Positions 13,953-54,702 of a stretch of 64,000 nucleotides of DNA are shown here, in pieces. The notes beneath the pieces were generated by a model. That model was not told the DNA's origin. It was given only the letters and a program-made list of their open reading frames with translations, and ran no database searches. Where the stretch lies: NCBI GenBank assembly GCA_949282555.1, contig CASDPK010000003.1, positions 6,865 through 70,864 of the forward strand, in the 5' to 3' direction. The position numbers and the translations under genes were made by a program. The stretch comes from an uncultured Lentisphaeraceae bacterium. GTDB lineage: Bacteria; Verrucomicrobiota; Kiritimatiellia; RFP12; DVOR01. How positions within the stretch are numbered: the first letter of the stretch is position 1; each line of letters opens with the position of its first letter.

Positions 13953-14066
13953 ATGAAAGTTCGTAGTTCTGTCAAACGCATCTGTGAGCAGTGCCGCATC
14001 ATCCGGCGCAAGGGTGTCGTGCGCGTCATCTGCACGAATCCCCGCCACAAGCAGCGCCAAGGTTAA
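13953..14066 (+). CDS. rpmJ: 50S ribosomal protein L36
   Basis: 37 aa ([37 protein letters not shown]). Shorter than the 60-aa cutoff, so it is not in the ORF track. RBS aggaa lies upstream. Confidence 0.9.
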
Positions 14067-20761: not shown

Positions 20762-21385
20762 TCACGCCACCTTGCGGCGAAGCGCCAGCCCAGCCACTCC
20801 CAGCGCCAGCAACGCCAACGCCGTCGGCTCGGGAACAGTAACTACGCTTCCCTTATAGGCACCCGCAGCGATGATCATATCTTCGGCAGTAATGTCTGTT
20901 TCACTGGTAATAAAATTGAGGCCATTGACTGTTGAGTCCCCTGTTTTGATTACGTTGAACCACTCTTTTCCATCGATGTAAACCGTTACGGTTACATTTT
21001 GCGAACCCTCCGTTAACTTCTCGTATGTTATTGCTACTGTATGCTTCGCTCCTGAGATTGTCGTCTCATTGGCGATGTTATCCGTGTACTGACCTTTTGT
21101 TCCTAGCGCGTAAGTACCATCTTCTGCCCCAGCCTTGACATAAAGAATGGTATTTCCGCCGGACCACTGGGCTGCCTTAAAGATTGCCGCATAGGACTCT
21201 CCCGCAGTCGAGAAGTCCAAGTTGACAATCAACGAAGTTGTTCCAATACCCGTTCCTTGCCCCTGATTTGCCCAAATCGTTTTACTTTCATCGGGGGTTT
21301 CAGGATTATACGTCCAATCATAAGTAATCGCGCTGGCCACGCCGGCCACGCAAAGGGCCGCAAGGGCCATCATCAGTTTCTTCAT
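20762..21385 (-). CDS. PEP-CTERM sorting-domain protein (secreted, unknown function)
   Basis: Signal peptide MKKLMMALAALCVAGVASA. C-terminal VPEPTALALLALGVAGLALRRKVA has the PEP motif, a TM helix and a basic tail. RBS aggag with 9-nt spacer. Confidence 0.8.
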   Translation of the reverse strand: MKKLMMALAALCVAGVASAITYDWTYNPETPDESKTIWANQGQGTGIGTTSLIVNLDFSTAGESYAAIFKAAQWSGGNTILYVKAGAEDGTYALGTKGQYTDNIANETTISGAKHTVAITYEKLTEGSQNVTVTVYIDGKEWFNVIKTGDSTVNGLNFITSETDITAEDMIIAAGAYKGSVVTVPEPTALALLALGVAGLALRRKVA

Positions 21386-26989: not shown

Positions 26990-27208
26990 TTAGTTGCGTG
27001 TGGGCGCAAGGAGGTCGTCCACCGTTCGGAAATCCGAGCAGGAGGCCCCGGGGAGGATTTTGTTGAAACGGAAACGCAAGAGCGCCAGATAGGCGAGCAG
27101 GGCCATGGAGTCCCACGTGAGCGTGTCGAGCGGCGTTTCGGGGGTGAGGGTTCCGGGCGCGGCGTTGAGAATGTCGGCCAGTTCGTCGAGAAGATCCTGT
27201 TCGTTCAT
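26990..27208 (-). CDS. Acyl carrier protein
   Basis: 72 aa with a phosphopantetheine-attachment-like DSMAL motif. RBS ggag lies upstream. Confidence 0.7.
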   Translation of the reverse strand: MNEQDLLDELADILNAAPGTLTPETPLDTLTWDSMALLAYLALLRFRFNKILPGASCSDFRTVDDLLAPTRN

Positions 27209-27211
27209 GGG

Positions 27212-28177
27212 TCACTCCGGGAGGATAAGGGGAGGGAGACAGACGTCGAAATCCAACACCGTCCGGGCGGTCAACCACGTGAGCCCCACACCGAAGGCCG
27301 AGAGAAGGGCATCTTGGCGGCCATGGACGCCTTCGGCCACGAGGTCGCACAGAAGCAATGGCAGGCTGGCGCAAGAGGTATTCCCCCTTCGGGCAATACG
27401 GCAGGGCGTCCGCTCAGACGGGAAGCGGCACATCCGGGCGATTTGGCGCACAATGAAGGCGTTGGCCTGATGCAACAACAGCAGATCGGGTGCGCCTGAA
27501 GTCGCCTCCAGTACGCGGAGTATCTGCTCGGGGACGCGCGTGACCGTGAAGTTGAAGACATCGGTCCCCGCCATGTGGAAATGGCCGCCGTGCGGGAGGG
27601 TGATGGCCTCGGAGGCCTCGCAAGCCGAGGCAATGGCCCACGATGCCTCGCCCTTCCCAAGCACCGCCGCAAAACCCGCATCGCCAAACAGCATCGCGGA
27701 AGTATGATCGTTCGGATCCACCAGCCGTGAAAGCGTGTCGCCGCCAAGGAGCAGGACATTGCGGACCTCGGGGGATTGCAGAAAGTGCGCAGCCGTCAGA
27801 ATGCCGGCAAGGAACCCCGCGCATCCTTGATTGAGGTCCAACGCAAACACGTGGCTCCCGAGTCCAAGGCGTCCTTGCAAGAGGGAGGCGGTGGCAGGGG
27901 CGACGGCATCGGGCGTTTGCGTGACGAAGAGCAGAACGTCGATGGCGTCCGCTTCCAGACGGCCTGTGTCAAGGAGCTGGCGGGCCGCCGCTTCGGCGAG
28001 GTCGGAAGCGCGTTGGCTTGGGTTCGCCGCGTGGAAACACTCCACGCCAACGACCTGCCGGAACCGGGCCACCGTTTCGGCTCCAAAACGGTCTGCGAAG
28101 GCTTCCACCTTCACCACGCGCCCCGGCAACGCACAGGCAAGCGCCTTCAAGCGAACGTTTCCGAAGGTTTCAAGCAC
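27212..28177 (-). CDS. 3-oxoacyl-ACP synthase III (FabH-like KAS III), GTG start
   Basis: Active-site Cys (NQGCAGF), HQAN His and a GFGVGLTW Asn region. RBS GGAGG lies 6 nt before GTG 28177. Confidence 0.75.
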   Translation of the reverse strand: MLETFGNVRLKALACALPGRVVKVEAFADRFGAETVARFRQVVGVECFHAANPSQRASDLAEAAARQLLDTGRLEADAIDVLLFVTQTPDAVAPATASLLQGRLGLGSHVFALDLNQGCAGFLAGILTAAHFLQSPEVRNVLLLGGDTLSRLVDPNDHTSAMLFGDAGFAAVLGKGEASWAIASACEASEAITLPHGGHFHMAGTDVFNFTVTRVPEQILRVLEATSGAPDLLLLHQANAFIVRQIARMCRFPSERTPCRIARRGNTSCASLPLLLCDLVAEGVHGRQDALLSAFGVGLTWLTARTVLDFDVCLPPLILPE

Positions 28178-28397
28178 GGTGAGCCTCCACGGCGGACAAC
28201 ATATCCCCCACGGTACGCATGGAGACCATTTCGGCAGAGGTGAACGCCACTCCGAGTCGCCGCTCCACCGCCAGCAACAAGGCCAAATGCGCCACGGAGT
28301 CCCACCCCGGCAGTGCGGCAAAGGCCGTGTCGGCATGGAAGGGCGGCATGGGCTGCCCGAGCGTTTCGGAAAAGAGATCCCGCAAGGTTTCCAACAT
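28170..28397 (-). CDS. Acyl carrier protein (second copy)
   Basis: 75 aa with GWDSVAHL phosphopantetheine site. RBS aggag lies upstream of ATG 28397. Confidence 0.7.
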   Translation of the reverse strand: MLETLRDLFSETLGQPMPPFHADTAFAALPGWDSVAHLALLLAVERRLGVAFTSAEMVSMRTVGDMLSAVEAHRA

Positions 28398-28405
28398 GGC
28401 GACTC

Positions 28406-29893
28406 CTAGGGCTTCGACGGTTCGCGCAACGGCACACCGTGGGTGGCGTAGACGTCCCGGCAACGCGCGTTGCGGTCGGTGGGGAGATACGCCCCGCAAA
28501 GGTTGGGCTCTTGCGCCTTGAGATGGTTGAGGATAAGCGCTTCCACGCCGCGATTCAAGGCCCGGCAACTGATGACCCACGTTTCGATGAAGGCGCCGTC
28601 GAGCACCACCGCACTCACGATCCCGAGGTCCCCGAAGCGATCCCTCAGACGGTACACCCAGCCTCGCTTCCCGGCCAATTCGGCCTCCGTGTGCCGTGTG
28701 CCGCGCATGTTGAACTGGTTGCACCGTTGCGTGAGTTGGGCGGCGCGGGCCGCATTGGCAGGGCCGAGCGGCTCCGGAAGCAACTCCTGATCCAATGAGG
28801 CCAAATAATCCTCACGGGAGGGGGCGGATTGCTCGGCACGCTCGCGGGCATGATCCGCACGCAAAGAGTGGGCGCGTAAGGCGTCGTCCGCCGTGATCTG
28901 TGCGGTCTCAAAGAGATTGAGCCGAGCCAGAAACTCGGGCCACAAGGCCGGATCGGCGGGGAGCTCGGGCACGGCGACCTCGGGAAGGGCGGCACGCACT
29001 TCGGCCCGTTGCTCGGGGCGGTCGTCCACGAAGACAAGGGCGTCCGTCCCCACGTGCAGGTGCGCGGCGATGCGGCGGAGCATGGCGGATTTCGGCCCCC
29101 AATCGGCCTCGAACGCAAGAAAATCCTCGGGAACCATCTCCATCGCCGGATGGCGGAAGGCGGCGTGTGCCGGCTCCCAGTCGTTGCGTGAGGCCACGGC
29201 CAAGAGGATGCCTCTGGCGGCCAAGGCGCGGAGCCACGCGCGATAGGCTTGGCGGCCGGGGGCTTCGGGGGCGATGCCGTCGGGGCCGACCTCGCTGACG
29301 ATGCCATCCCACAGGGTGCCATCCAAATCGGTGACGAGGACTTTGCGCAGACGCCCGAAGGCCGCGCAAAGCGTATCGGCTGTGCGGCGGGCGACTTCCG
29401 GAAGCGCGGCGGGGGCCAATGCGCAGGCGGCGACTTCCCACAAGCGCGGATCGAAGGTTGCCCCACGGCCAAGAAGGCTCTGCACGAGGTCGAGATCCAC
29501 GAGCGAGAGGTTCGCGTGCGTTCGCGCCAACGACTGGAGACGTGTGTTCCAATCGAGAATCCGTGCCCGGAGGGAGGGCGTATAGGTGAGCGCGAGACTG
29601 CCGCAGGTGCCGTCGTCGCGCGTGACCATGTCATAGACGAGAAAGCGGTAAGGCAAGGCCAAGATGGGCTCAAGCTCCGGGAACCGTTCAGCCTCGGCAC
29701 AACACCACACCACCACGGCGTCGGGACGGAACGTTTCCAGTTCGTCTTGCACGGCCAGCGGCGACGTGAAGGCCCAGCACCGGATGTCGGGGCGATACCC
29801 ACGGGTTTGGAGCTCGCCCTCAAGCGCCCGTGCGAGCGGTTGCGGCGCACTGTCGGCAAAGAACGCCACGCGCAGTGTGGGCGATTCCGTCAT
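28406..29893 (-). CDS. FkbH-like HAD-superfamily IIIC phosphatase-domain protein with C-terminal GNAT-like acyltransferase region
   Basis: HAD motif I VLVTDLDGTLWDG. Architecture matches the FkbH-like family (N-terminal SGNH-like part, HAD core, C-terminal acyltransferase-like part). Confidence 0.7.
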   Translation of the reverse strand: MTESPTLRVAFFADSAPQPLARALEGELQTRGYRPDIRCWAFTSPLAVQDELETFRPDAVVVWCCAEAERFPELEPILALPYRFLVYDMVTRDDGTCGSLALTYTPSLRARILDWNTRLQSLARTHANLSLVDLDLVQSLLGRGATFDPRLWEVAACALAPAALPEVARRTADTLCAAFGRLRKVLVTDLDGTLWDGIVSEVGPDGIAPEAPGRQAYRAWLRALAARGILLAVASRNDWEPAHAAFRHPAMEMVPEDFLAFEADWGPKSAMLRRIAAHLHVGTDALVFVDDRPEQRAEVRAALPEVAVPELPADPALWPEFLARLNLFETAQITADDALRAHSLRADHARERAEQSAPSREDYLASLDQELLPEPLGPANAARAAQLTQRCNQFNMRGTRHTEAELAGKRGWVYRLRDRFGDLGIVSAVVLDGAFIETWVISCRALNRGVEALILNHLKAQEPNLCGAYLPTDRNARCRDVYATHGVPLREPSKP

Positions 29894-31035
29894 GGGCGCG
29901 ACTCCGAGAGGGCAAAGGTGTAGCAGGCCCGGAACTCGGCGGCGACCGCCGAGAAGGTGCGGTCGCGCTCCAGCGCCTCAAGGGCGGCAAGCGCATGGTC
30001 GGCGCAGAGCAAGGGGGTCAAAAGGTGACGGCGAACCGCGGCGGTGATCGCCTGCGCATTGGGAGGCACAAGGCAGGCGTTCGCGTCGTTCAGCAACGTT
30101 TCGTAGGCCGGGCAACGGATCACCAAAAGGGGGCGGCAGGCGGCGATGACGTCGAGCAGTCGCGCGGGCGGCAGGATGCCGTGCGCGAGGGGGAGAAAGA
30201 CGAGGTCGGCATCGGCCACGCAGGCGCCAAGCTCTTCCGCATCGCACGGTTCGGGCCGAATCTCCACCGCCGAAGCGTCGGGGAGGTGGCGGGCCAGCGC
30301 CGCACGGATGCGCTCCCCGGCGGCGGGCGCCCCACACGCGATGCGGACACGGAAGTTGGCGTGGGTGAGGAGATCGGGGAGCGCGTCGCACAACGCGGCG
30401 AGCCCCTCCACCCCGGTCTCCGACATGAACGCCGTAAGCCGGAAGGGCTGGGCGGCGCCGTGCAAACGGGGCGGCGGTGGCGGCCGGCGGACAATGGCCG
30501 GATCGGGCAGGGCCGGCACGGTGGCGATGCGCCCATAGAGGCCCGTCTCGCGGAGGCGGGCGAAGGGGTAGGGCACATCGGAGAGCACAAGGCTCACCGC
30601 GCGCAGAAAACGTTTGGGGCGGCGGCGGAGCCACCGCACAAGGTCGTGCCCGGAGGCGGTGTGCCATTCAAAGATGAAGCGCGCACCGAACACCCACGCC
30701 ACCAATCCTCCGACCCGGACGGAACGGTCGGCGCAGTGCACGGCGTCATATCGGCGGTGGATGAAGAGCCGCAATGCCGCCAACGTCAGCGCCAGCGTGG
30801 CCCACCGGCGGCGAAGGCCGGAGCCGTAAGGCGGAAGCGTTCGCGCGAAGGGAACGCGGGCCGTGTGGTAAAGGTGGCGCACTAGGCCCTGAGGCCACGG
30901 ATCGCCCCCCGGGAAGGTGAGCAGGTCGGCCTCAAGGCCCGCGGCCCGGATCAAGGAGAGCATTTGGACGGCCGCCCGTCCGTGCGGGGAACCCGCACGG
31001 TAGACCTGGGCGTAAAGATAGAGCACTCTCCCCAT
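29890..31035 (-). CDS. GT4-family (GT-B fold) glycosyltransferase
   Basis: C-terminal EX7E-like region, otherwise an Ala/Arg-rich GT-B protein. Stop overlaps the FkbH-like start. Confidence 0.6.
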   Translation of the reverse strand: MGRVLYLYAQVYRAGSPHGRAAVQMLSLIRAAGLEADLLTFPGGDPWPQGLVRHLYHTARVPFARTLPPYGSGLRRRWATLALTLAALRLFIHRRYDAVHCADRSVRVGGLVAWVFGARFIFEWHTASGHDLVRWLRRRPKRFLRAVSLVLSDVPYPFARLRETGLYGRIATVPALPDPAIVRRPPPPPRLHGAAQPFRLTAFMSETGVEGLAALCDALPDLLTHANFRVRIACGAPAAGERIRAALARHLPDASAVEIRPEPCDAEELGACVADADLVFLPLAHGILPPARLLDVIAACRPLLVIRCPAYETLLNDANACLVPPNAQAITAAVRRHLLTPLLCADHALAALEALERDRTFSAVAAEFRACYTFALSESRP

Positions 31036-31047
31036 CGCGTGGGCCCC

Positions 31048-31947
31048 TTATTGGAGGCGCAGTTGGGCGCCTTGGCGTTGCACGTGCATTTTGCGCACCA
31101 CCCAGGAGAGGTCGAGGCCGGAGACGAAGGCATTGGCCTGCTTCCCAAAGGCGTCGTCGTCATCGATCACCACCGCCACAATCGTGGGGCCCGCGCCGGA
31201 GATGTAAACGGACACGGCGTCGGTCTGCTCCACCGCGAACCGCATCACATCGGCACCCTGCGGAATGAGCTGGAGACGGTATTCCTGGTGGATACGATCC
31301 TTGCAACCGGCGCGGATGAGGCGAGGGTCGGCGCGCTCCAACCCTTCCAGCAGGATGGGGACGCGCGACAGATTGTAAATGCAGTCGGTCAGCGAATAGG
31401 TCTTCGGGAGCGCGGCGCGCGCGGCCTCGGTGGGCACGCGCACCTCGGGCATGAGCGCATAGAAGCTGATGCGGTCGCTGATCGGGTAGCGGTGCCAGTA
31501 GACCAAGCCGTCTTCCACGATGGCGGCCACGAATCCGCCGAGAATGGCCGGAGCGACGTTGTCGGGGTGCCCTTCGATGAGGGTGGCGGTGCGGAGGATT
31601 TGCTCGGTGTCCATCGAGAGATTGCCCAACGCATTGGCCGCCATCACCCCTGCCACAATGCAAGTGGAGCTGGATCCCAGGCCGGAGCAGACGGGCAGAT
31701 CGGTGTCGAAACCGATGCACAGGTTCGGGGCCAAGCGCCCGTGTTGGGCGAGCACCTGGGTGAGCGTGGTGTACAACAGGTTGTTTTCCGGGGCGGAGAA
31801 CTCCGGAAGGCAACCCTCAATCCGCAGACGCTCGGGGCAATCCGTGTCGAACGTGAAACGGTTGTACATATCGAACGCCAACCCCATGACGTCAAAGCCC
31901 GGGCCGACATTGGCGCTCGTCGCGGGCACCGAAATCTTGAACCTCAT
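31048..31947 (-). CDS. thrB: Homoserine kinase
   Basis: GHMP kinase motifs (PATSANVGPGFD, PxGSGLGSSS). RBS gagagga lies upstream. Confidence 0.88.
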   Translation of the reverse strand: MRFKISVPATSANVGPGFDVMGLAFDMYNRFTFDTDCPERLRIEGCLPEFSAPENNLLYTTLTQVLAQHGRLAPNLCIGFDTDLPVCSGLGSSSTCIVAGVMAANALGNLSMDTEQILRTATLIEGHPDNVAPAILGGFVAAIVEDGLVYWHRYPISDRISFYALMPEVRVPTEAARAALPKTYSLTDCIYNLSRVPILLEGLERADPRLIRAGCKDRIHQEYRLQLIPQGADVMRFAVEQTDAVSVYISGAGPTIVAVVIDDDDAFGKQANAFVSGLDLSWVVRKMHVQRQGAQLRLQ

Positions 31948-32075
31948 AACAATCCTCTCTTCGGCGATTATAGCACAAGCCAATGGCGCGCTTGTGCGGC
32001 TATTCCAGAATGGCCGACCAAATGACAAGGGGCGGCGCGGAGGTCGCGTCGCCCCTCTTTGATTCTGTTCAGACC

Positions 32076-32651
32076 TCAGCCGTTTTGGTGACGCTTGGCG
32101 GCGGCGAGGTTCTTCTCGTATTCGGACTTACAGCTGACGCAACGGATGGCGAAGGGCGCCGCCCGCAGACGATCGCGCGGGATGAGGCATCCGCACACCT
32201 GGCAGATGCCGTAAGTCTTGTTGTCGATGGCACGCAGGGCATCATCGATGGCGTGGAGGCGGGTGTGCTGTTCATCGGCACGGCTGAGATCCGCCGAGCG
32301 CGCGAAGGCGTTGGAACCATCCTCTTCCACGTTCTCCTCGTCCGCGCGGCGGAGCGCATCGGCGCGCGTGGCGCGGAGCTGGCGCAGGATGGCTTCCCGG
32401 TCGGCGAGGAGGCGTTTGCGGAAGTCCGCGAGGTCGGCGTCGCTGAAATGTTGCTCGCCATTTTTGGCGAAGCGGGGGCGCGGGCCGGAACTCTTTTTCC
32501 CAGAGGGACGCACCAAGTCGTACTTGGGGCGGATTGGCAAGGCAGATTCACCGGAAGCGGGAGTGCCTTTTTGCGGGGCAATTTCTTTGACCACCGGCGT
32601 TTGGGTGGCTTCTTGGGGGGCAACTTTCCCCAAGGGAGTTTTTTCAGTTAT
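32076..32651 (-). CDS. DksA/TraR-family C4 zinc-finger segment, in the -1 frame relative to the upstream KA-rich ORF
   Basis: C-terminal CQVCGCLIPRDRLRAAPFAIRCVSC, preceded by a coiled-coil (FRKRLLADREAILRQLR). No ATG or Shine-Dalgarno-supported start lies downstream of the A10 run. Confidence 0.55.
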   Translation of the reverse strand: MTEKTPLGKVAPQEATQTPVVKEIAPQKGTPASGESALPIRPKYDLVRPSGKKSSGPRPRFAKNGEQHFSDADLADFRKRLLADREAILRQLRATRADALRRADEENVEEDGSNAFARSADLSRADEQHTRLHAIDDALRAIDNKTYGICQVCGCLIPRDRLRAAPFAIRCVSCKSEYEKNLAAAKRHQNG

Positions 32652-45291: not shown

Positions 45292-45365
45292 TGCCTCGTG
45301 GTGTAATGGTAGCACAACTGACTCTGGATCAGTTTGTCAAGGTTCGAATCCTTGCGAGGCAACCA
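45292..45365 (+). tRNA. tRNA-Gln (anticodon CTG)
   Basis: Manual fold. Acceptor TGCCTCG/CGAGGCA. D-arm GTGT-AATGGTA-GCAC. Anticodon stem ACTGA/TCAGT with loop CTCTGGA. T-arm CAAGG-TTCGAAT-CCTTG. 3' ACCA. Confidence 0.8.
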
Positions 45366-52306: not shown

Positions 52307-53482
52307 CTACAACTTTGGCCTTGTCGCGAAATCGCTGTAGGGTTCATAGTCGTTAACCGTAAAAGCGATGCTATAGCATTTGCGCCCTAGGTCATCTATT
52401 GTGTGTTCATTGGTGATTTTGACGGAGTCAATGCCGTAAATGTTAAGGTCCTCCATCGTAACGAGGGTGCCTTCGGCTTTACGAAGTACTTGACGCAAAA
52501 GCCATTTCCCAAGTGCGGCATTGGGGGCGCTCATTAGTGCCTTGGAGCCCTCTTGGCAAACTTTTGCTGTAAGGACTTCGCCGTGAGGAAGGCGAAGAGC
52601 GAAGTGTTCATCGCGTGGCGGAAAGAAGCCTGGGTGGAGTGTATGGATTCGTTTGGGAATGGGAATATAAACCTCGTTAAAGTCACGCGGGCGTCCCTCT
52701 GCGTTCCATTGGTTAAGCCCACTTCGTTCCGGAACACTAGGTAACTTTCCGCGTGTGCTATAAAGTGGGAGAATGACATAGTCTTTGGGAAGAGTTTTTA
52801 TAGGGAGATAAGGCGATGATTTTTCCCCTCTGAGAACAGCAAGCAACAGTCGTAACGGGTCTTCAAGGATGTTTACCGGAATTGGGACTGTTCCAACTGT
52901 TGGGACGTGGAACCGTTTTAAGAGAACGCTCTTACTTCGATTGAAGTTGTACTCATTTTTACCGTCATCAAAAGTAATCCCCGCAGTATTCGTCTTTGTG
53001 ATACAAAGTGCGTTGAGGTCTATTGGTTCATAAGGAACATTAAAAAGAAGTAAACCTCCTTCGGTGCGCCCAACGATATGATAAATACTTTGAGTGGTTT
53101 TATAAATGTTGTCTGCGGCTTGAATGCGCGTATTGCGAAAGGAACCAAGTTTTCGGGCGAGATCAAGACCGTCGAGTGGGTCAAGTTCAGCCTTGAGCTT
53201 ATTGAATTCTGCCACCTTTTCAAAAGAGGGGGCCGCCTTGAGAAGAAAGGTTTTGATGCCAACGCCTAGTGAGCCGATCCTTGCGTCATAGGCTGTACAT
53301 GATCGGGCATCGTTGATGGCTTGGAAGAATGTACAGAAGAGATTTTCCGTGAGGCGATAGTCAAGGAAGGGCTGTGAACTTTCCGAAAAGAGTTTAGAAA
53401 GGCTGGCCAGTGCACGAAGTGCATCGAAATAGGGTGCATTCGTTTGCCAAGTGGAAAGAAACTCCTGTGCGGATGGTTTCAC
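52307..53482 (-). CDS. Putative type II restriction endonuclease (cognate of the adjacent m5C MTase)
   Basis: 391-aa low-GC ORF. GTG start overlaps the MTase stop (GTGA). No recognisable family motif. The call rests on position only. Confidence 0.4.
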   Translation of the reverse strand: MKPSAQEFLSTWQTNAPYFDALRALASLSKLFSESSQPFLDYRLTENLFCTFFQAINDARSCTAYDARIGSLGVGIKTFLLKAAPSFEKVAEFNKLKAELDPLDGLDLARKLGSFRNTRIQAADNIYKTTQSIYHIVGRTEGGLLLFNVPYEPIDLNALCITKTNTAGITFDDGKNEYNFNRSKSVLLKRFHVPTVGTVPIPVNILEDPLRLLLAVLRGEKSSPYLPIKTLPKDYVILPLYSTRGKLPSVPERSGLNQWNAEGRPRDFNEVYIPIPKRIHTLHPGFFPPRDEHFALRLPHGEVLTAKVCQEGSKALMSAPNAALGKWLLRQVLRKAEGTLVTMEDLNIYGIDSVKITNEHTIDDLGRKCYSIAFTVNDYEPYSDFATRPKL

Positions 53483-54702
53483 GATAGCTCCATCACTTTA
53501 AGCATTTCGGCACAGACTGCCTGAACGAGAGGAACAACCACGGAGTTCCCTGCTTGTTTGTATTTGGCGGATAGGGGAATAGTTTCTGGGAAGTCATAGT
53601 TCTTGGGAAAGCCTTGGAAGTTAAGGCATTCTTTAGGGGAAAGCTTGCGGATAAGGTTGTTCCGAATAATCAGCGGGACATTGTGCCCCCCGGTTCCCAT
53701 ATTTGCCGTAAGCGTTGGACAAACGTGGCTTTGATTTTTACGAACATACTGTCGTCGCCACTGATAAATGCTATTAGGATCGATTATCTCTTTCCGAAGT
53801 TCCTCGAAGTGTGACATCGCTTCCGTGTAAACAAGCCGCGGATCTTTAAGTTGGGCATCGATACAGTCATGAATGGTTCGTGTAAGTAGTTGTTTTTTAG
53901 GGAATTGAAACGTATTACAACGTGGAACTCGCATTGGATCAAAGCAGATGATAAAGAGCCGTTCACGGTTCTGGGGAACGTTCGCATACACCATTGCATT
54001 CATCACCTTGTGAAAGACGCAATAGCCCAGTTGGCGGAGTGTTCGGTGAATAACTTCGAACGTTTTACCTCTATTGTGGGAGGTAAGGTTCTTCACATTC
54101 TCCAAGAAGACAGCCTTTGGATGTTTGGTCTTGAGAATCTCAGCGATGTCATAAAACAGTGTCCCTCGCGTGTCATCAAACCCTTTTTGATAACCGGCAA
54201 TAGAAAAGGGTTGGCATGGAAATCCCCCGAAAAGGCAATCGAATCCTTCGGGGATTGCCGCCTTGGTCTCCGCGTGGGTAATATCACCATATGGTACCTC
54301 ACCGAAGTTATGGCAATAGGTCTTTTGTGCATTGATGTCAAACTCGGAGGAAAAAACACACCGCCCACCGAGTGCTTGTGCCGCCAAGCGAAAACCTCCG
54401 ATTCCCGCGAAAAGATCAACGAACATGAATCGATTTTCCGTCGGACGAAATGGCGCATCCTGCCGTTCAAAGAGACCTTCTTGGACGTTTATCTGATGTA
54501 ACGACTGAAAGTGTTTTTGGGGCAACTTTTCAATAGGTATATTTGAGGCTGTCGCTTTCTTTTCCAATGTGTTGGATTTTGAATCGGAAATCAAACAGCT
54601 ACGCAGTAATTTCAAGTCCCCATGCTCATTCTGTTGGGTAGAAACCGAATGCGTGTTTTTTTTGCCTTTTACGTGTGGCCTTTGACCTCCCGAAGAAGAC
54701 AT
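53479..54702 (-). CDS. DNA (cytosine-5)-methyltransferase
   Basis: Motif I FAGIGGF, motif IV GFPCQPFS, motif VI ENV and motif VIII QNRERLF. 92-aa N-terminal extension containing an A8 run. Confidence 0.88.
   Translation of the reverse strand: MSSSGGQRPHVKGKKNTHSVSTQQNEHGDLKLLRSCLISDSKSNTLEKKATASNIPIEKLPQKHFQSLHQINVQEGLFERQDAPFRPTENRFMFVDLFAGIGGFRLAAQALGGRCVFSSEFDINAQKTYCHNFGEVPYGDITHAETKAAIPEGFDCLFGGFPCQPFSIAGYQKGFDDTRGTLFYDIAEILKTKHPKAVFLENVKNLTSHNRGKTFEVIHRTLRQLGYCVFHKVMNAMVYANVPQNRERLFIICFDPMRVPRCNTFQFPKKQLLTRTIHDCIDAQLKDPRLVYTEAMSHFEELRKEIIDPNSIYQWRRQYVRKNQSHVCPTLTANMGTGGHNVPLIIRNNLIRKLSPKECLNFQGFPKNYDFPETIPLSAKYKQAGNSVVVPLVQAVCAEMLKVMELS

Follow-up and report, generated by a model that had tools for sequence, protein, structure and literature searches.

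A conserved thrB-anchored operon with FkbH-ACP and KAS III-ACP modules and a putative glycosyltransferase in a lineage of gut PVC bacteria

We analysed a stretch of 64,000 nucleotides (hereafter, the window) and identified in it six adjacent genes on the minus strand, followed by a spacer with terminator-like and promoter-like sites:

31048-31947, minus strand: thrB (homoserine kinase), first gene of the conserved six-gene block
29890-31035, minus strand: glycosyltransferase (GT), divergent, GT4-like, with a GT-B fold; 381 aa
28406-29893, minus strand: FkbH-type HAD-IIIC enzyme, predicted glyceryl-ACP loader, with an SGNH-like N-terminal domain, a HAD phosphatase domain and a C-terminal Cys domain; 495 aa
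28170-28397, minus strand: ACP1, carrier partner of the FkbH-like enzyme; 75 aa
27212-28177, minus strand: KAS III, FabH-type; 321 aa, GTG start
26990-27208, minus strand: ACP2, carrier partner of the KAS III; 72 aa
26883-26902, minus strand: terminator-like hairpin, then ATTTTTGTT; probable 3' end of the operon
26974-26946 and 26856-26828: promoter-like sites in the same spacer as the hairpin; consensus matches only

The initial annotation described the five genes from the GT to ACP2 (26990-31035) as co-directional and tightly spaced, and all five are indeed on the minus strand with junctions of -8 to +8 nt: the GT and FkbH-like genes overlap by 4 nt, ACP1 starts 8 nt after the FkbH-like gene and overlaps the KAS III gene by 8 nt, and 3 nt separate the KAS III gene from ACP2. 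However, thrB, which lies 12 nt upstream of the GT gene and is part of the conserved block, had been overlooked. The junctions of the six genes thus range from -8 to +12 nt, and their GC3 is uniform (0.74-0.83). The same order, thrB-GT-FkbH-ACP-KAS-ACP, recurs in our comparison set of 11 other diverged genomes or metagenome contigs (L007, L009, L092-L095, L101, L102, L104, L105, and in part L100), where the FkbH-like proteins are 52-68% identical to that of the window; therefore, these genes are real rather than chance open reading frames. The homoserine kinase scores 228 bits against TIGR00191 (cut-off 168), its gene precedes that of the GT in every orthologous locus, and it is 80-92% identical between genomes, compared with 36-75% for the other five proteins there. 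Most simply, thrB is a co-transcribed housekeeping gene, and the five remaining genes constitute two carrier-protein modules (FkbH-ACP1 and KAS III-ACP2) and a private glycosyltransferase.

The flanks of the operon are unrelated in all 11 other loci. Its neighbors are housekeeping genes that differ from genome to genome (rpsO, hemB, prfA/B-like, psd/pssA-like and ftsW); those found 3' of it elsewhere include genes for a pseudopilin, hemB, comEC, a PpiD-like rotamase, a UDP-sugar pyrophosphorylase and an M20 peptidase, among others, and in several of these loci the downstream neighbors are on the opposite strand. The operon stands alone among housekeeping genes, anchored to thrB; it is vertically inherited and confined to a single lineage of gut PVC bacteria, labelled Ca. 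Spyradenecus or Kiritimatiellia in the sources. These surroundings bear on the possibility that the block is a fragment of an ordinary O-antigen or capsule locus, providing an unusual acyl substituent for a repeat-unit sugar. Although the closest relatives of both modules outside the orthologues do lie in loci of that type, no Wzx/Wzy, Wza/Wzc, initiating transferase, NDP-sugar enzyme or N-acyltransferase was found in or beside the block in seven loci with flanks of 7-10 kb, and the operon was not seen conserved within a standard polysaccharide locus. We therefore consider such an origin very unlikely.

The cluster had also been proposed to be coupled to a gene for a giant secreted LamG/beta-helix/discoidin protein 150 bp downstream. 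The spacing is 152 nt to the start of the longest LamG ORF and 224 nt to the called ATG, and the operon and the giant gene lie on the same strand at this distance both here and in the conspecific contigs L001-L006; in L007, a different LamG_3 protein is encoded about 2 kb downstream. However, BLASTP found no homologue of the LamG or giant protein in any of the 11 other operon-bearing loci. Furthermore, GC3 breaks at the boundary, from the values of the operon to 0.60-0.64 in the LamG/discoidin gene, the spacer holds the terminator-like hairpin and promoter-like sites, and an in-frame TAG (amber) codon at 25916-25914 splits the giant gene of this strain, whose operon is intact; the codon reads CAG in a 98%-identical strain, where the ORF is single and 1651 aa long. 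A Pfam scan found no secretion-related domains in the five operon proteins. The lack of homologues, the lower GC3, the preceding hairpin and the amber codon refute the coupling, and the operon works independently of the adjacent gene. It is thus extremely improbable that the cluster is a dedicated glycan/acyl modification system co-expressed with this protein.

The assignment of the FkbH-like protein was confirmed by two models, TIGR01686 (231 bits, cut-off 146.65) and TIGR01681 (58 bits, cut-off 35.75). HAD motifs I-IV are intact rather than degenerate, and they are conserved, together with a single invariant Cys443, in 42 sequences. They are also kept in the FkbH homologue of locus L098, an acyl-tetronate-type cassette on a Streptomyces plasmid, which is 37% identical to the window protein, S-C-R motif included. 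The suggested GNAT-like C-terminus fits the predicted secondary-structure order, but its only supporting sequence match, to the GNAT YsnE, is sub-threshold (E = 0.42). The nearest solved relative of the orthogroup, BF1531 (3SLR), is titled 'uncharacterized'. With the FkbH/OzmB-type glyceryl-ACP loaders (TIGR01686), the protein shares the DxDxT, S, K and DD motifs, the C-terminal invariant Cys and an ACP immediately downstream, and it is 35-40% identical to the homologues associated with Streptomyces polyketide synthases (PKS). On the other hand, it is a long form whose SGNH-like N-terminal domain lacks a conserved nucleophile, and its gene belongs to an operon in the core genome of an anaerobic lineage of gut PVC bacteria, without PKS, NRPS, FkbG/I/K-type dehydrogenases or O-methyltransferase. 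In the published mechanism of OzmB, a (phospho)glyceryl-S-enzyme forms first and the group is then passed to an ACP (PMC9057759), and FkbH-containing loading modules provide a precedent for glycerate as a starter unit (PMC13122637). Both predicted ACPs exceed the gathering threshold of PF00550 (20.8 bits) and have a W-D-S site. ACP1 (33.3 bits), with the phosphopantetheine site G-W-D-S, shares 30% identity across 44 aa with the ACP that follows the L098 homologue, and its relatives occur in 68 of the 78 non-orthologous FkbH-like loci, mostly directly downstream of the FkbH-like gene. A small ACP after an FkbH-like gene is likewise found in the 'Dlt-like' FkbH-like-ACP-MBOAT(-SGNH) modules widespread in polysaccharide loci, whose FkbH-like proteins are 30-40% identical to that of the window. 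However, an MBOAT gene adjoins in 52 of the 76 loci clustered and never in the PVC operon, which instead has a cytoplasmic KAS III and a GT.

The KAS III matches PF08545 and PF08541 strongly, and an alignment with E. coli FabH indicates that its catalytic triad, Cys119-His236-Asn266, is intact. The protein falls below the cut-offs of both FabH equivalog models (199 < 249 and 156 < 292). Its top PDB match is 4EFI (173 bits), ahead of crystallised FabHs (about 105-136 bits). The closest non-orthologues, P0182 (44% identity, 254 bits) and P0213 (36%), both lie in KAS III-ACP-KAS III-SDR cassettes of polysaccharide loci, themselves uncharacterised and found in capsule-type loci of Bacteroidota and PVC bacteria (for example, L096 and L097). 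Over its full length, ACP2 (23.8 bits against PF00550) shares 42% identity with the ACP of the L096 cassette. Identities of 44% for the KAS III and 42% for ACP2 to the KAS and ACP of one cassette indicate that the two were inherited as a pair; the window, however, lacks the second KAS III, the reductase and the polysaccharide machinery, and has an FkbH-ACP pair added.

These results allow two alternative roles of the KAS III to be weighed. In the first, the block would be a minimal acyl-tetronate or butenolide pathway of the RK-682/agglomerin type, in which the FabH-like enzyme joins glyceryl-ACP1 and a beta-ketoacyl-ACP2 by C-C and C-O bonds into a 3-acyl-5-hydroxymethyl-tetronate, and glycosylation by the GT replaces the usual acetylation and elimination. 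The FkbH-like, ACP and FabH-like trio, for which no thioesterase is needed, is indeed the core of the tetronate 'glycerate-utilisation operon' (RkE/RkF/RkD, Agg1-5, Mad7/8/16-18) (PMC7489565). In addition, two ACP-bound substrates would account for the two ACPs, and ring formation for the absent thioesterase. FabH-like-FkbH-ACP cassettes, which we read as tetronate cassettes from their annotated gene content, occur on Streptomyces plasmids (L098 and L099), and the similarity of their FkbH homologue to the window protein fits this role. However, the KAS III belongs to the canonical FabH type with a His and shares only 30% identity with the L098 enzyme; this match scores 63.5 bits, fewer than those to true FabHs or to P0182, and both the L098 and L099 enzymes have Pro at the position of the catalytic His. 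Furthermore, the block has no Agg4/Agg5-type acyltransferase or dehydratase and no PKS, ketosynthase or acyl-AMP ligase that could provide the beta-ketoacyl chain, and it has an ACP and a GT in excess of the tetronate operon. A tetronate pathway of this kind is thus rather improbable.

In the second alternative, which we regard as unlikely though less so, the KAS III would not condense but would transfer an ACP-bound acyl group via its Cys to a hydroxyl of a GT-installed sugar, as OzmC, DpsC, CerJ and ChlB6 do. The cargo would be the glyceryl group from ACP1 or a short acyl group from ACP2, and the result a glyceroylated glycoconjugate. Characterised KAS III-like acyltransferases usually swap Asn for Asp or otherwise alter the triad, but the KAS III of the window retains Cys, His and Asn in full. 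Moreover, acyl transfer gives no reason for two ACPs, and no acceptor-building genes (NDP-sugar enzymes, flippase or polymerase) are conserved near the operon. In its favor, the ozm operon for methoxymalonate encodes the DpsC-like acyltransferase OzmC right next to the FkbH enzyme OzmB (PMC9057759), and distant FkbH-ACP pairs are mostly found in acyl-transfer systems, with the MBOAT neighbors noted above and with SGNH/DltD-like genes common. The nearest relatives of the KAS III are in polysaccharide loci, and in L032 and L078 the FkbH, ACP and KAS III genes co-occur with PglD-like/hexapeptide acyltransferases and sugar-modifying genes.

The family call is weakest for the GT. The proposed GT4 assignment is supported by the AlphaFold (AF2) model (pLDDT 91.1), a GT-B fold best matched by GT4 enzymes, and by matches of the orthologues to Glyco_trans_1_4 and Glyco_transf_4, but the window protein itself scores below the Pfam gathering threshold (19.7 < 28.5). 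Its profile yielded only weak matches in the PDB, to PimA, WaaG and 5I45. By Foldseek, the model resembles GlgM, MshA, BshA and PimA (E 3e-15 to 1e-12, TM 0.64-0.70), retaining GT4 enzymes with small or lipid acceptors; they share the GT-B fold with the window protein, but at 13-19% identity membership is marginal at the sequence level. Residue D295 is invariant and was placed by eye at the second Glu of the EX7E motif; no conserved acidic residue was seen at the first Glu position, likewise placed by eye. Since the first EX7E acid is not conserved and the Pfam score is sub-gathering, the donor, the acceptor and even the activity of this GT are uncertain. On sequence searches, the family is confined to this operon and lineage: a set of 5.8 billion proteins contained only 42 clusters of relatives, of which 40 match over the full length (44-97% identity) and two in part.

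The TIGR01686 score, the HAD motifs, Cys443 and the 37% identity to the L098 homologue support the earlier suggestion of a small pathway for an ACP-tethered, glycerate-derived acyl group destined for a glycoside or glycolipid. We infer its substrates, order of steps and product as follows. As judged from family membership, the FkbH-type enzyme would react with 1,3-bisphosphoglycerate to form phosphoglyceryl-S-Cys443, from which the HAD domain would strip the phosphate, and the D-glyceryl group would be handed to holo-ACP1. The housekeeping FabD would load malonyl onto ACP2, and the KAS III would condense the glyceryl primer with malonyl-ACP2 decarboxylatively into 4,5-dihydroxy-3-oxopentanoyl-ACP2. 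The C5 chain may grow no further and release itself by lactonisation as 5-hydroxymethyl-tetronate, or it may be extended by the housekeeping FAS II; both fates, self-release and feeding into FAS, agree with the finding of no thioesterase or acyltransferase in the block. Finally, the GT4-like enzyme would add a sugar to a free hydroxyl, its nearest folds being the small-acceptor enzymes MshA, BshA, GlgM and PimA. Taken as a whole, this glycerate-primed, decarboxylative and glycosylated route is the likeliest of the readings weighed here, plausible but tentative. The KAS III could equally use acetyl-CoA or another acyl-CoA as primer, and each module may process a substrate of its own, the two coming together only on the final acceptor. 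The gene content of the operon includes nothing accounting for export or the final cellular destination, and the glycerate pathway leaves the conserved linkage to thrB without explanation. We conclude that the probable product of this operon of gut PVC bacteria is a small compound that carries a sugar and is made from a glycerate unit derived from glycolysis.

The five genes reported in the initial annotation at 26990-31035 are present on the minus strand exactly as described, as judged from their coordinates, junctions and HMM searches, and they are preceded by a thrB gene overlooked there, which ends 12 nt upstream of the glycosyltransferase (GT) gene. From upstream to downstream, the block and its neighbour read as follows.

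32076-32633, minus strand, dksA-like gene, upstream neighbour of thrB
31048-31947, minus strand, thrB (TIGR00191, 228 bits against a cut-off of 168)
29890-31035, minus strand, GT4-like glycosyltransferase, 381 aa
28406-29893, minus strand, FkbH-like HAD-IIIC protein, 495 aa
28170-28397, minus strand, ACP1, 75 aa (PF00550 above gathering)
27212-28177, minus strand, KAS III with a GTG start, 321 aa (PF08545 and PF08541 match)
26990-27208, minus strand, ACP2, 72 aa (PF00550 above gathering)

The GT and FkbH-like genes overlap by 4 nt, ACP1 starts 8 nt after the FkbH-like stop codon and overlaps the KAS III gene by 8 nt, and 3 nt separate the KAS III gene from ACP2. Since GC3 is 0.83 in thrB and 0.74-0.83 in the other five genes, thrB has the codon composition of the cluster. 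The family assignments held above cut-off for the FkbH-like protein (TIGR01686 and TIGR01681) and for both ACPs (PF00550), whereas the GT4 call fell below gathering in the window protein. The dksA-like gene and thrB are separated by a 128-nt spacer with a strong GC-rich 13-bp hairpin (32028-32056). The T-run of this hairpin belongs to the plus strand, on which no gene end is convincing there; a terminator-like or regulatory element ahead of the operon is one possibility. In an Rfam scan of the window, neither a riboswitch nor a leader turned up close to the operon, the sole match in the 64 kb being a tRNA gene (45292-45362, plus strand). Elsewhere in the window, a low-GC island (52307-54702, minus strand; GC about 0.47 versus about 0.62 in the window) carries the genes of an NgoFVII-like restriction endonuclease (PF20731) and a C-5 cytosine DNA methyltransferase (PF00145), flanked by ORFs of 217 and 110 aa without a Pfam match, and is probably a horizontally acquired type II restriction-modification system.

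Proteins identical to those of the window are encoded on 21 metagenome contigs. Relatives are labelled Kiritimatiellia or Candidatus Spyradenecus by their sources, NCBI placing that genus under Lentisphaerota; under either label, the operon belongs to a PVC lineage of the gut. Orthologues of the FkbH-like protein form a sharply bounded group of 68 clusters at 51-97% identity, beyond which identity falls to 44% or less; at least two loci of this group are among the matches listed in a scan of genome contigs, which under-samples its taxonomic breadth. We compared gene order in loci L007, L009 and L092-L095, whose FkbH-like proteins are 52-68% identical to that of the window, and in metagenome loci L100-L105, anchored independently on thrB. 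The order and orientation thrB-GT-FkbH-ACP-KAS-ACP is common to every locus with enough sequence. The flanks differ from locus to locus and are mostly housekeeping, with dksA-like, rpsO, crcB, Na+/H+ exchanger, ftsW or S1 protein genes upstream, and pseudopilin genes, hemB, comEC, or genes for a PpiD-like rotamase, a UDP-sugar pyrophosphorylase or an M20 peptidase downstream. Between the window and the other genomes, identity is 80-92% for ThrB, 43-66% for GT, 52-68% for the FkbH-like protein, 57-68% for KAS III and 36-75% for ACP1 and ACP2. Thus the five other genes evolve much faster than thrB, GT being the most divergent of the three enzymes, and the sequence conservation of thrB is that of a housekeeping gene under strong constraint. 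It is nevertheless always the first gene of the block, despite the contrast of 80-92% with the 43-68% of the adjacent GT, FkbH and KAS III. No other threonine-pathway gene was seen beside thrB in the loci examined. The simplest reading of the linkage is co-transcription without a shared pathway, although a functional link between thrB and the other five genes is conceivable.

The initial annotation had coupled the cluster to the giant secreted LamG/beta-helix/discoidin protein encoded downstream of ACP2. Gene neighbourhoods in 11 orthologous loci do not bear this out, and BLASTP searches with both LamG/discoidin fragments against all ORFs of 12 orthologous loci gave no match. GC3 falls from 0.74-0.83 in the operon to 0.60-0.64 in the giant gene, and in the 152-224-nt spacer between them lie two promoter-like sites and, at 26902-26883, a hairpin with a T-run that resembles a terminator, all of them weak, consensus-only matches. 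Furthermore, the giant gene is broken by an in-frame TAG (25916-25914, minus strand), while the operon is intact in the same strain. The contig L002 of a 98%-identical strain has CAG there (near its position 13981) and a single ORF of 1651 aa, and the same TAG recurs in two other samples (L001 and L006); it represents either a segregating nonsense allele or pseudogenisation. Synteny, BLASTP, the break in GC3, the spacer sites and the TAG together leave the coupling unsupported. Based on the gene content of the 11 loci and the BLASTP result for both fragments, we rejected an adhesin-modification system, and modification of the giant protein is an extremely improbable role for the operon. Just downstream of the giant gene lies a PEP-CTERM protein gene (20762-21385, minus strand), followed by sulfatase genes. 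Another PEP-CTERM gene (L107, 2034-2708) follows that of P0070, a distant FkbH-like protein on a contig from the same study, whose context is known up to the contig end; the presence of PEP-CTERM genes at both places is probably a coincidence in PEP-CTERM-rich PVC genomes.

The alternative raised alongside that proposal, conservation of the operon within a standard O-antigen or capsule locus, was not seen either. Near the operon, the orthologous loci share no conserved gene for a flippase, polymerase, exporter, initiating transferase or NDP-sugar enzyme. We rejected such a locus because these hallmark genes occur in no flank and the flanks are housekeeping and different in each genome. It is likewise very unlikely that the operon is a satellite of a distant polysaccharide locus.

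The FkbH-like protein scored 231 bits against TIGR01686 (FkbH domain; cut-off 146.65) and 58.1 bits against TIGR01681 (cut-off 35.75). Degenerate HAD motifs would have spoken against the initial assignment; in alignments of 15 and 42 sequences, all motifs are conserved, D189-L-D191-x-T193, K268, D290 and S442-C443-R444 being invariant, and S235 and D291 nearly invariant across the 42. Among the Cys residues, C443 alone is invariant, and the homologue from L098, a Streptomyces plasmid cassette, has it as well. As OzmB has been described to proceed from a phosphoglyceryl-S-enzyme through a glyceryl-S-enzyme to glyceryl-ACP (PMC9057759), and C443 is the sole invariant Cys, this residue is the obvious candidate for the catalytic Cys that would bear the (phospho)glyceryl-S-enzyme intermediate. 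In its family score, HAD motifs, invariant Cys and adjacent ACP gene, the protein resembles the FkbH/HAD-IIIC loaders (TIGR01686). A tblastn search against plasmids returned Streptomyces FkbH homologues at 35-40% identity, the one in L098 being 37% identical over residues 114-486, including the S-C-R motif; S. meliloti pSymB also matched, in a region without annotation. The structure model (pLDDT 94.7) has three domains, and the predicted strand/helix order of the C-terminal one fits a GNAT fold. Pfam gave no match in residues 335-495, and the best PDB match of a profile of this domain was the GNAT YsnE, at a sub-threshold E-value of 0.42 and in the stretch that directly follows C443; in full-length fold searches, the matches came chiefly from the other two domains. 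The earlier label 'GNAT-like' is plausible but tentative.

Tetronate and methoxymalonate pathways are known to feature FkbH-ACP pairing and the association of FkbH with FabH-like enzymes (PMC7489565). Among the matches listed in the scan of genome contigs, we surveyed 78 non-orthologous FkbH-like loci (30-40% identity) from Bacteroidota, Clostridia, Myxococcota and others, and found a relative of ACP1 in 68 of them, most often directly downstream. In this survey, a small ACP thus accompanies most FkbH-like genes that lie outside PKS clusters. Gene clustering of the 76 loci with a usable FkbH call placed an MBOAT gene beside the FkbH-like gene in 52, and SGNH/DltD-like genes in many. The MBOAT is AlgI/DltB-like and often accompanied by SGNH/DltD-like, MaoC-like, SDR or VOC genes, and the modules sit in polysaccharide loci of Bacteroidota, Clostridia and others; examples are found in L010 (8621-13167), L037 and L074 (7938-11711). 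From their gene content, these FkbH-ACP-MBOAT modules look like a widespread 'Dlt-like' system with FkbH in place of the adenylating enzyme, and are a probable acylation system; a literature search on FkbH together with polysaccharide, MBOAT or O-antigen acyl cassettes brought up neither a characterised counterpart nor a description. FkbH, ACP and KAS III also occur together in polysaccharide loci L032, L078, L066, L074 and L087, and we read this combination as independent, since the proteins are only 28-33% identical to those of the window. By this survey, ACP1 belongs with the FkbH partners and not with the KAS III cassettes.

The KAS III matched crystallised FabHs at 105-136 bits, with 4EFI as the best match (173 bits). 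In a ten-sequence alignment, its triad Cys119-His236-Asn266 is intact as in E. coli FabH, where the counterparts are C112, H244 and N274; the triad also lines up in the 4EFI and 4DFE alignments. The enzyme shares this triad with housekeeping FabH but does not reach the equivalog cut-offs (NF006829, 199 versus 249; TIGR00747, 156 versus 292), and is thus FabH-like rather than a housekeeping FAS II orthologue. Its nearest non-orthologous relatives, P0182 (44%) and P0213 (36%), are both encoded in KAS III-ACP-KAS III-SDR cassettes within capsule-type loci, and ACP2 has 42% identity, along its whole length, with the ACP from one of these cassettes. As both proteins are related to the KAS III and ACP of such a cassette, they were inherited as a pair. 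It is somewhat unlikely that this KAS III acts as an ACP-dependent acyltransferase decorating a GT-made glycoside, for which OzmC beside OzmB offers a precedent (PMC9057759); its His and Asn decarboxylation dyad is intact, which argues for condensation over simple transfer.

A comparison with tetronate-type systems was made possible by two acyl-tetronate-like cassettes on Streptomyces linear plasmids.

5304-9418 of L098, on plasmid NZ_CP108444.1
5259-9313 of L099, on plasmid NZ_CP107837.1

They are annotated with a fatty acyl-AMP ligase, an acyl-CoA dehydrogenase, an ACP, a KS protein, a KAS III family protein, a HAD-IIIC phosphatase, a second ACP and a PPTase, and on this content may be read as RK-682-type acyl-tetronate clusters. 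Both adjoin a gene of AfsA-like type and a LuxR or HTH regulator. With the FabH-like enzyme of L098, the window KAS III shares only 30% identity (63.5 bits), and the FabH-like enzymes of both cassettes have Pro at the position of the catalytic His while keeping Cys and Asn, so that the window KAS III is unlike the RkD/Agg1/Tmn15-type enzyme of the tetronate glycerate-utilisation operon. Because of the low similarity and the differing His, we downgraded the KAS III as a tetronate synthase, and a true RK-682-type tetronate pathway, weakened by this comparison, is quite unlikely. In seven loci, neither the block nor its flanks contained an Agg4-like acyltransferase, an Agg5-like dehydratase or a PKS or FAS module that would supply a beta-ketoacyl chain. 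The methoxymalonyl-ACP pathway (FkbG-K or OzmB,D-G) has dehydrogenases and an O-methyltransferase beside FkbH and ACP, whereas 3-hydroxyacyl-CoA dehydrogenase, acyl-CoA dehydrogenase and O-methyltransferase genes are absent from all orthologous loci.

GT is the weakest family call, the GT4 Pfam match of the window protein scoring 19.7 against a gathering threshold of 28.5, although its orthologues carry precomputed PF13692, PF13439 and PF13579 matches. A seven-sequence profile gave only weak PDB matches (PimA, WaaG and 5I45), whereas the AlphaFold model (pLDDT 91.1) has a clear GT-B fold, with GlgM, MshA, BshA, PimA and sucrose-phosphate synthase as the best Foldseek matches (E-values 3e-15 to 1e-12, TM 0.64-0.70). 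Mapped by eye, without structural superposition, D295 is invariant where the second Glu of the EX7E motif would fall, and no conserved acidic residue was seen at the first position. Among 5.8 billion proteins, relatives form 42 clusters, 40 of them full-length at 44-97% identity and two partial; as all are orthologues, their gene context gives no functional lead.

Taken together, we tentatively favour a glycerate-primed condensation scheme, in which the operon would combine a loader (FkbH-ACP1), a condensing module (KAS III-ACP2) and a private GT. The FkbH-like enzyme would convert 1,3-BPG to glyceryl-S-ACP1; KAS III would condense this primer with a malonyl-ACP2 extender to 4,5-dihydroxy-3-oxopentanoyl-ACP2; and the GT4-like enzyme would glycosylate a hydroxyl. 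FkbH-containing loading modules offer a precedent for a glycerate starter bound to a carrier (PMC13122637). As the operon has no thioesterase, the chain may either release itself, which is conceivable because 4-hydroxy-3-oxo thioesters can close to tetronates by lactonisation, or pass to the housekeeping FAS II. A more far-reaching proposal, which we consider rather unlikely, is that the operon leads, without a PKS, from glycolysis to a new class of core metabolite of this lineage, with a FabH-type enzyme primed by glyceryl-ACP instead of acyl-CoA. One possible outcome is a self-released C5 product, a glycosylated 5-hydroxymethyl-tetronate or 4,5-dihydroxy-3-oxopentanoate, possibly a small reductone-like or signal-like molecule; another is extension by FAS II to fatty acids with a vicinal diol at their end, whose glycosylation by the private GT might give bolaform envelope glycolipids. 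On this proposal, the fixed place behind thrB would reflect constitutive expression as a housekeeping trait.

To our knowledge, work on FkbH enzymes has dealt almost exclusively with their supply of glycerate units to polyketide and non-ribosomal assembly lines. Every part of the present operon belongs to a known family; what is new is the joining of FkbH-ACP to a canonical FabH-type enzyme, to a second ACP and to a GT restricted to the lineage, without any PKS, at a fixed place behind thrB in the core genome of uncultured gut PVC bacteria. The synteny analysis removes the attractive idea of adhesin modification, a negative outcome that itself matters. If the favoured glycerate-primed chemistry is true, the operon would provide a minimal and easily reconstituted case of glycerate-primed chain initiation, and would point to a glycoside or glycolipid not yet known that is made by every member of the lineage.
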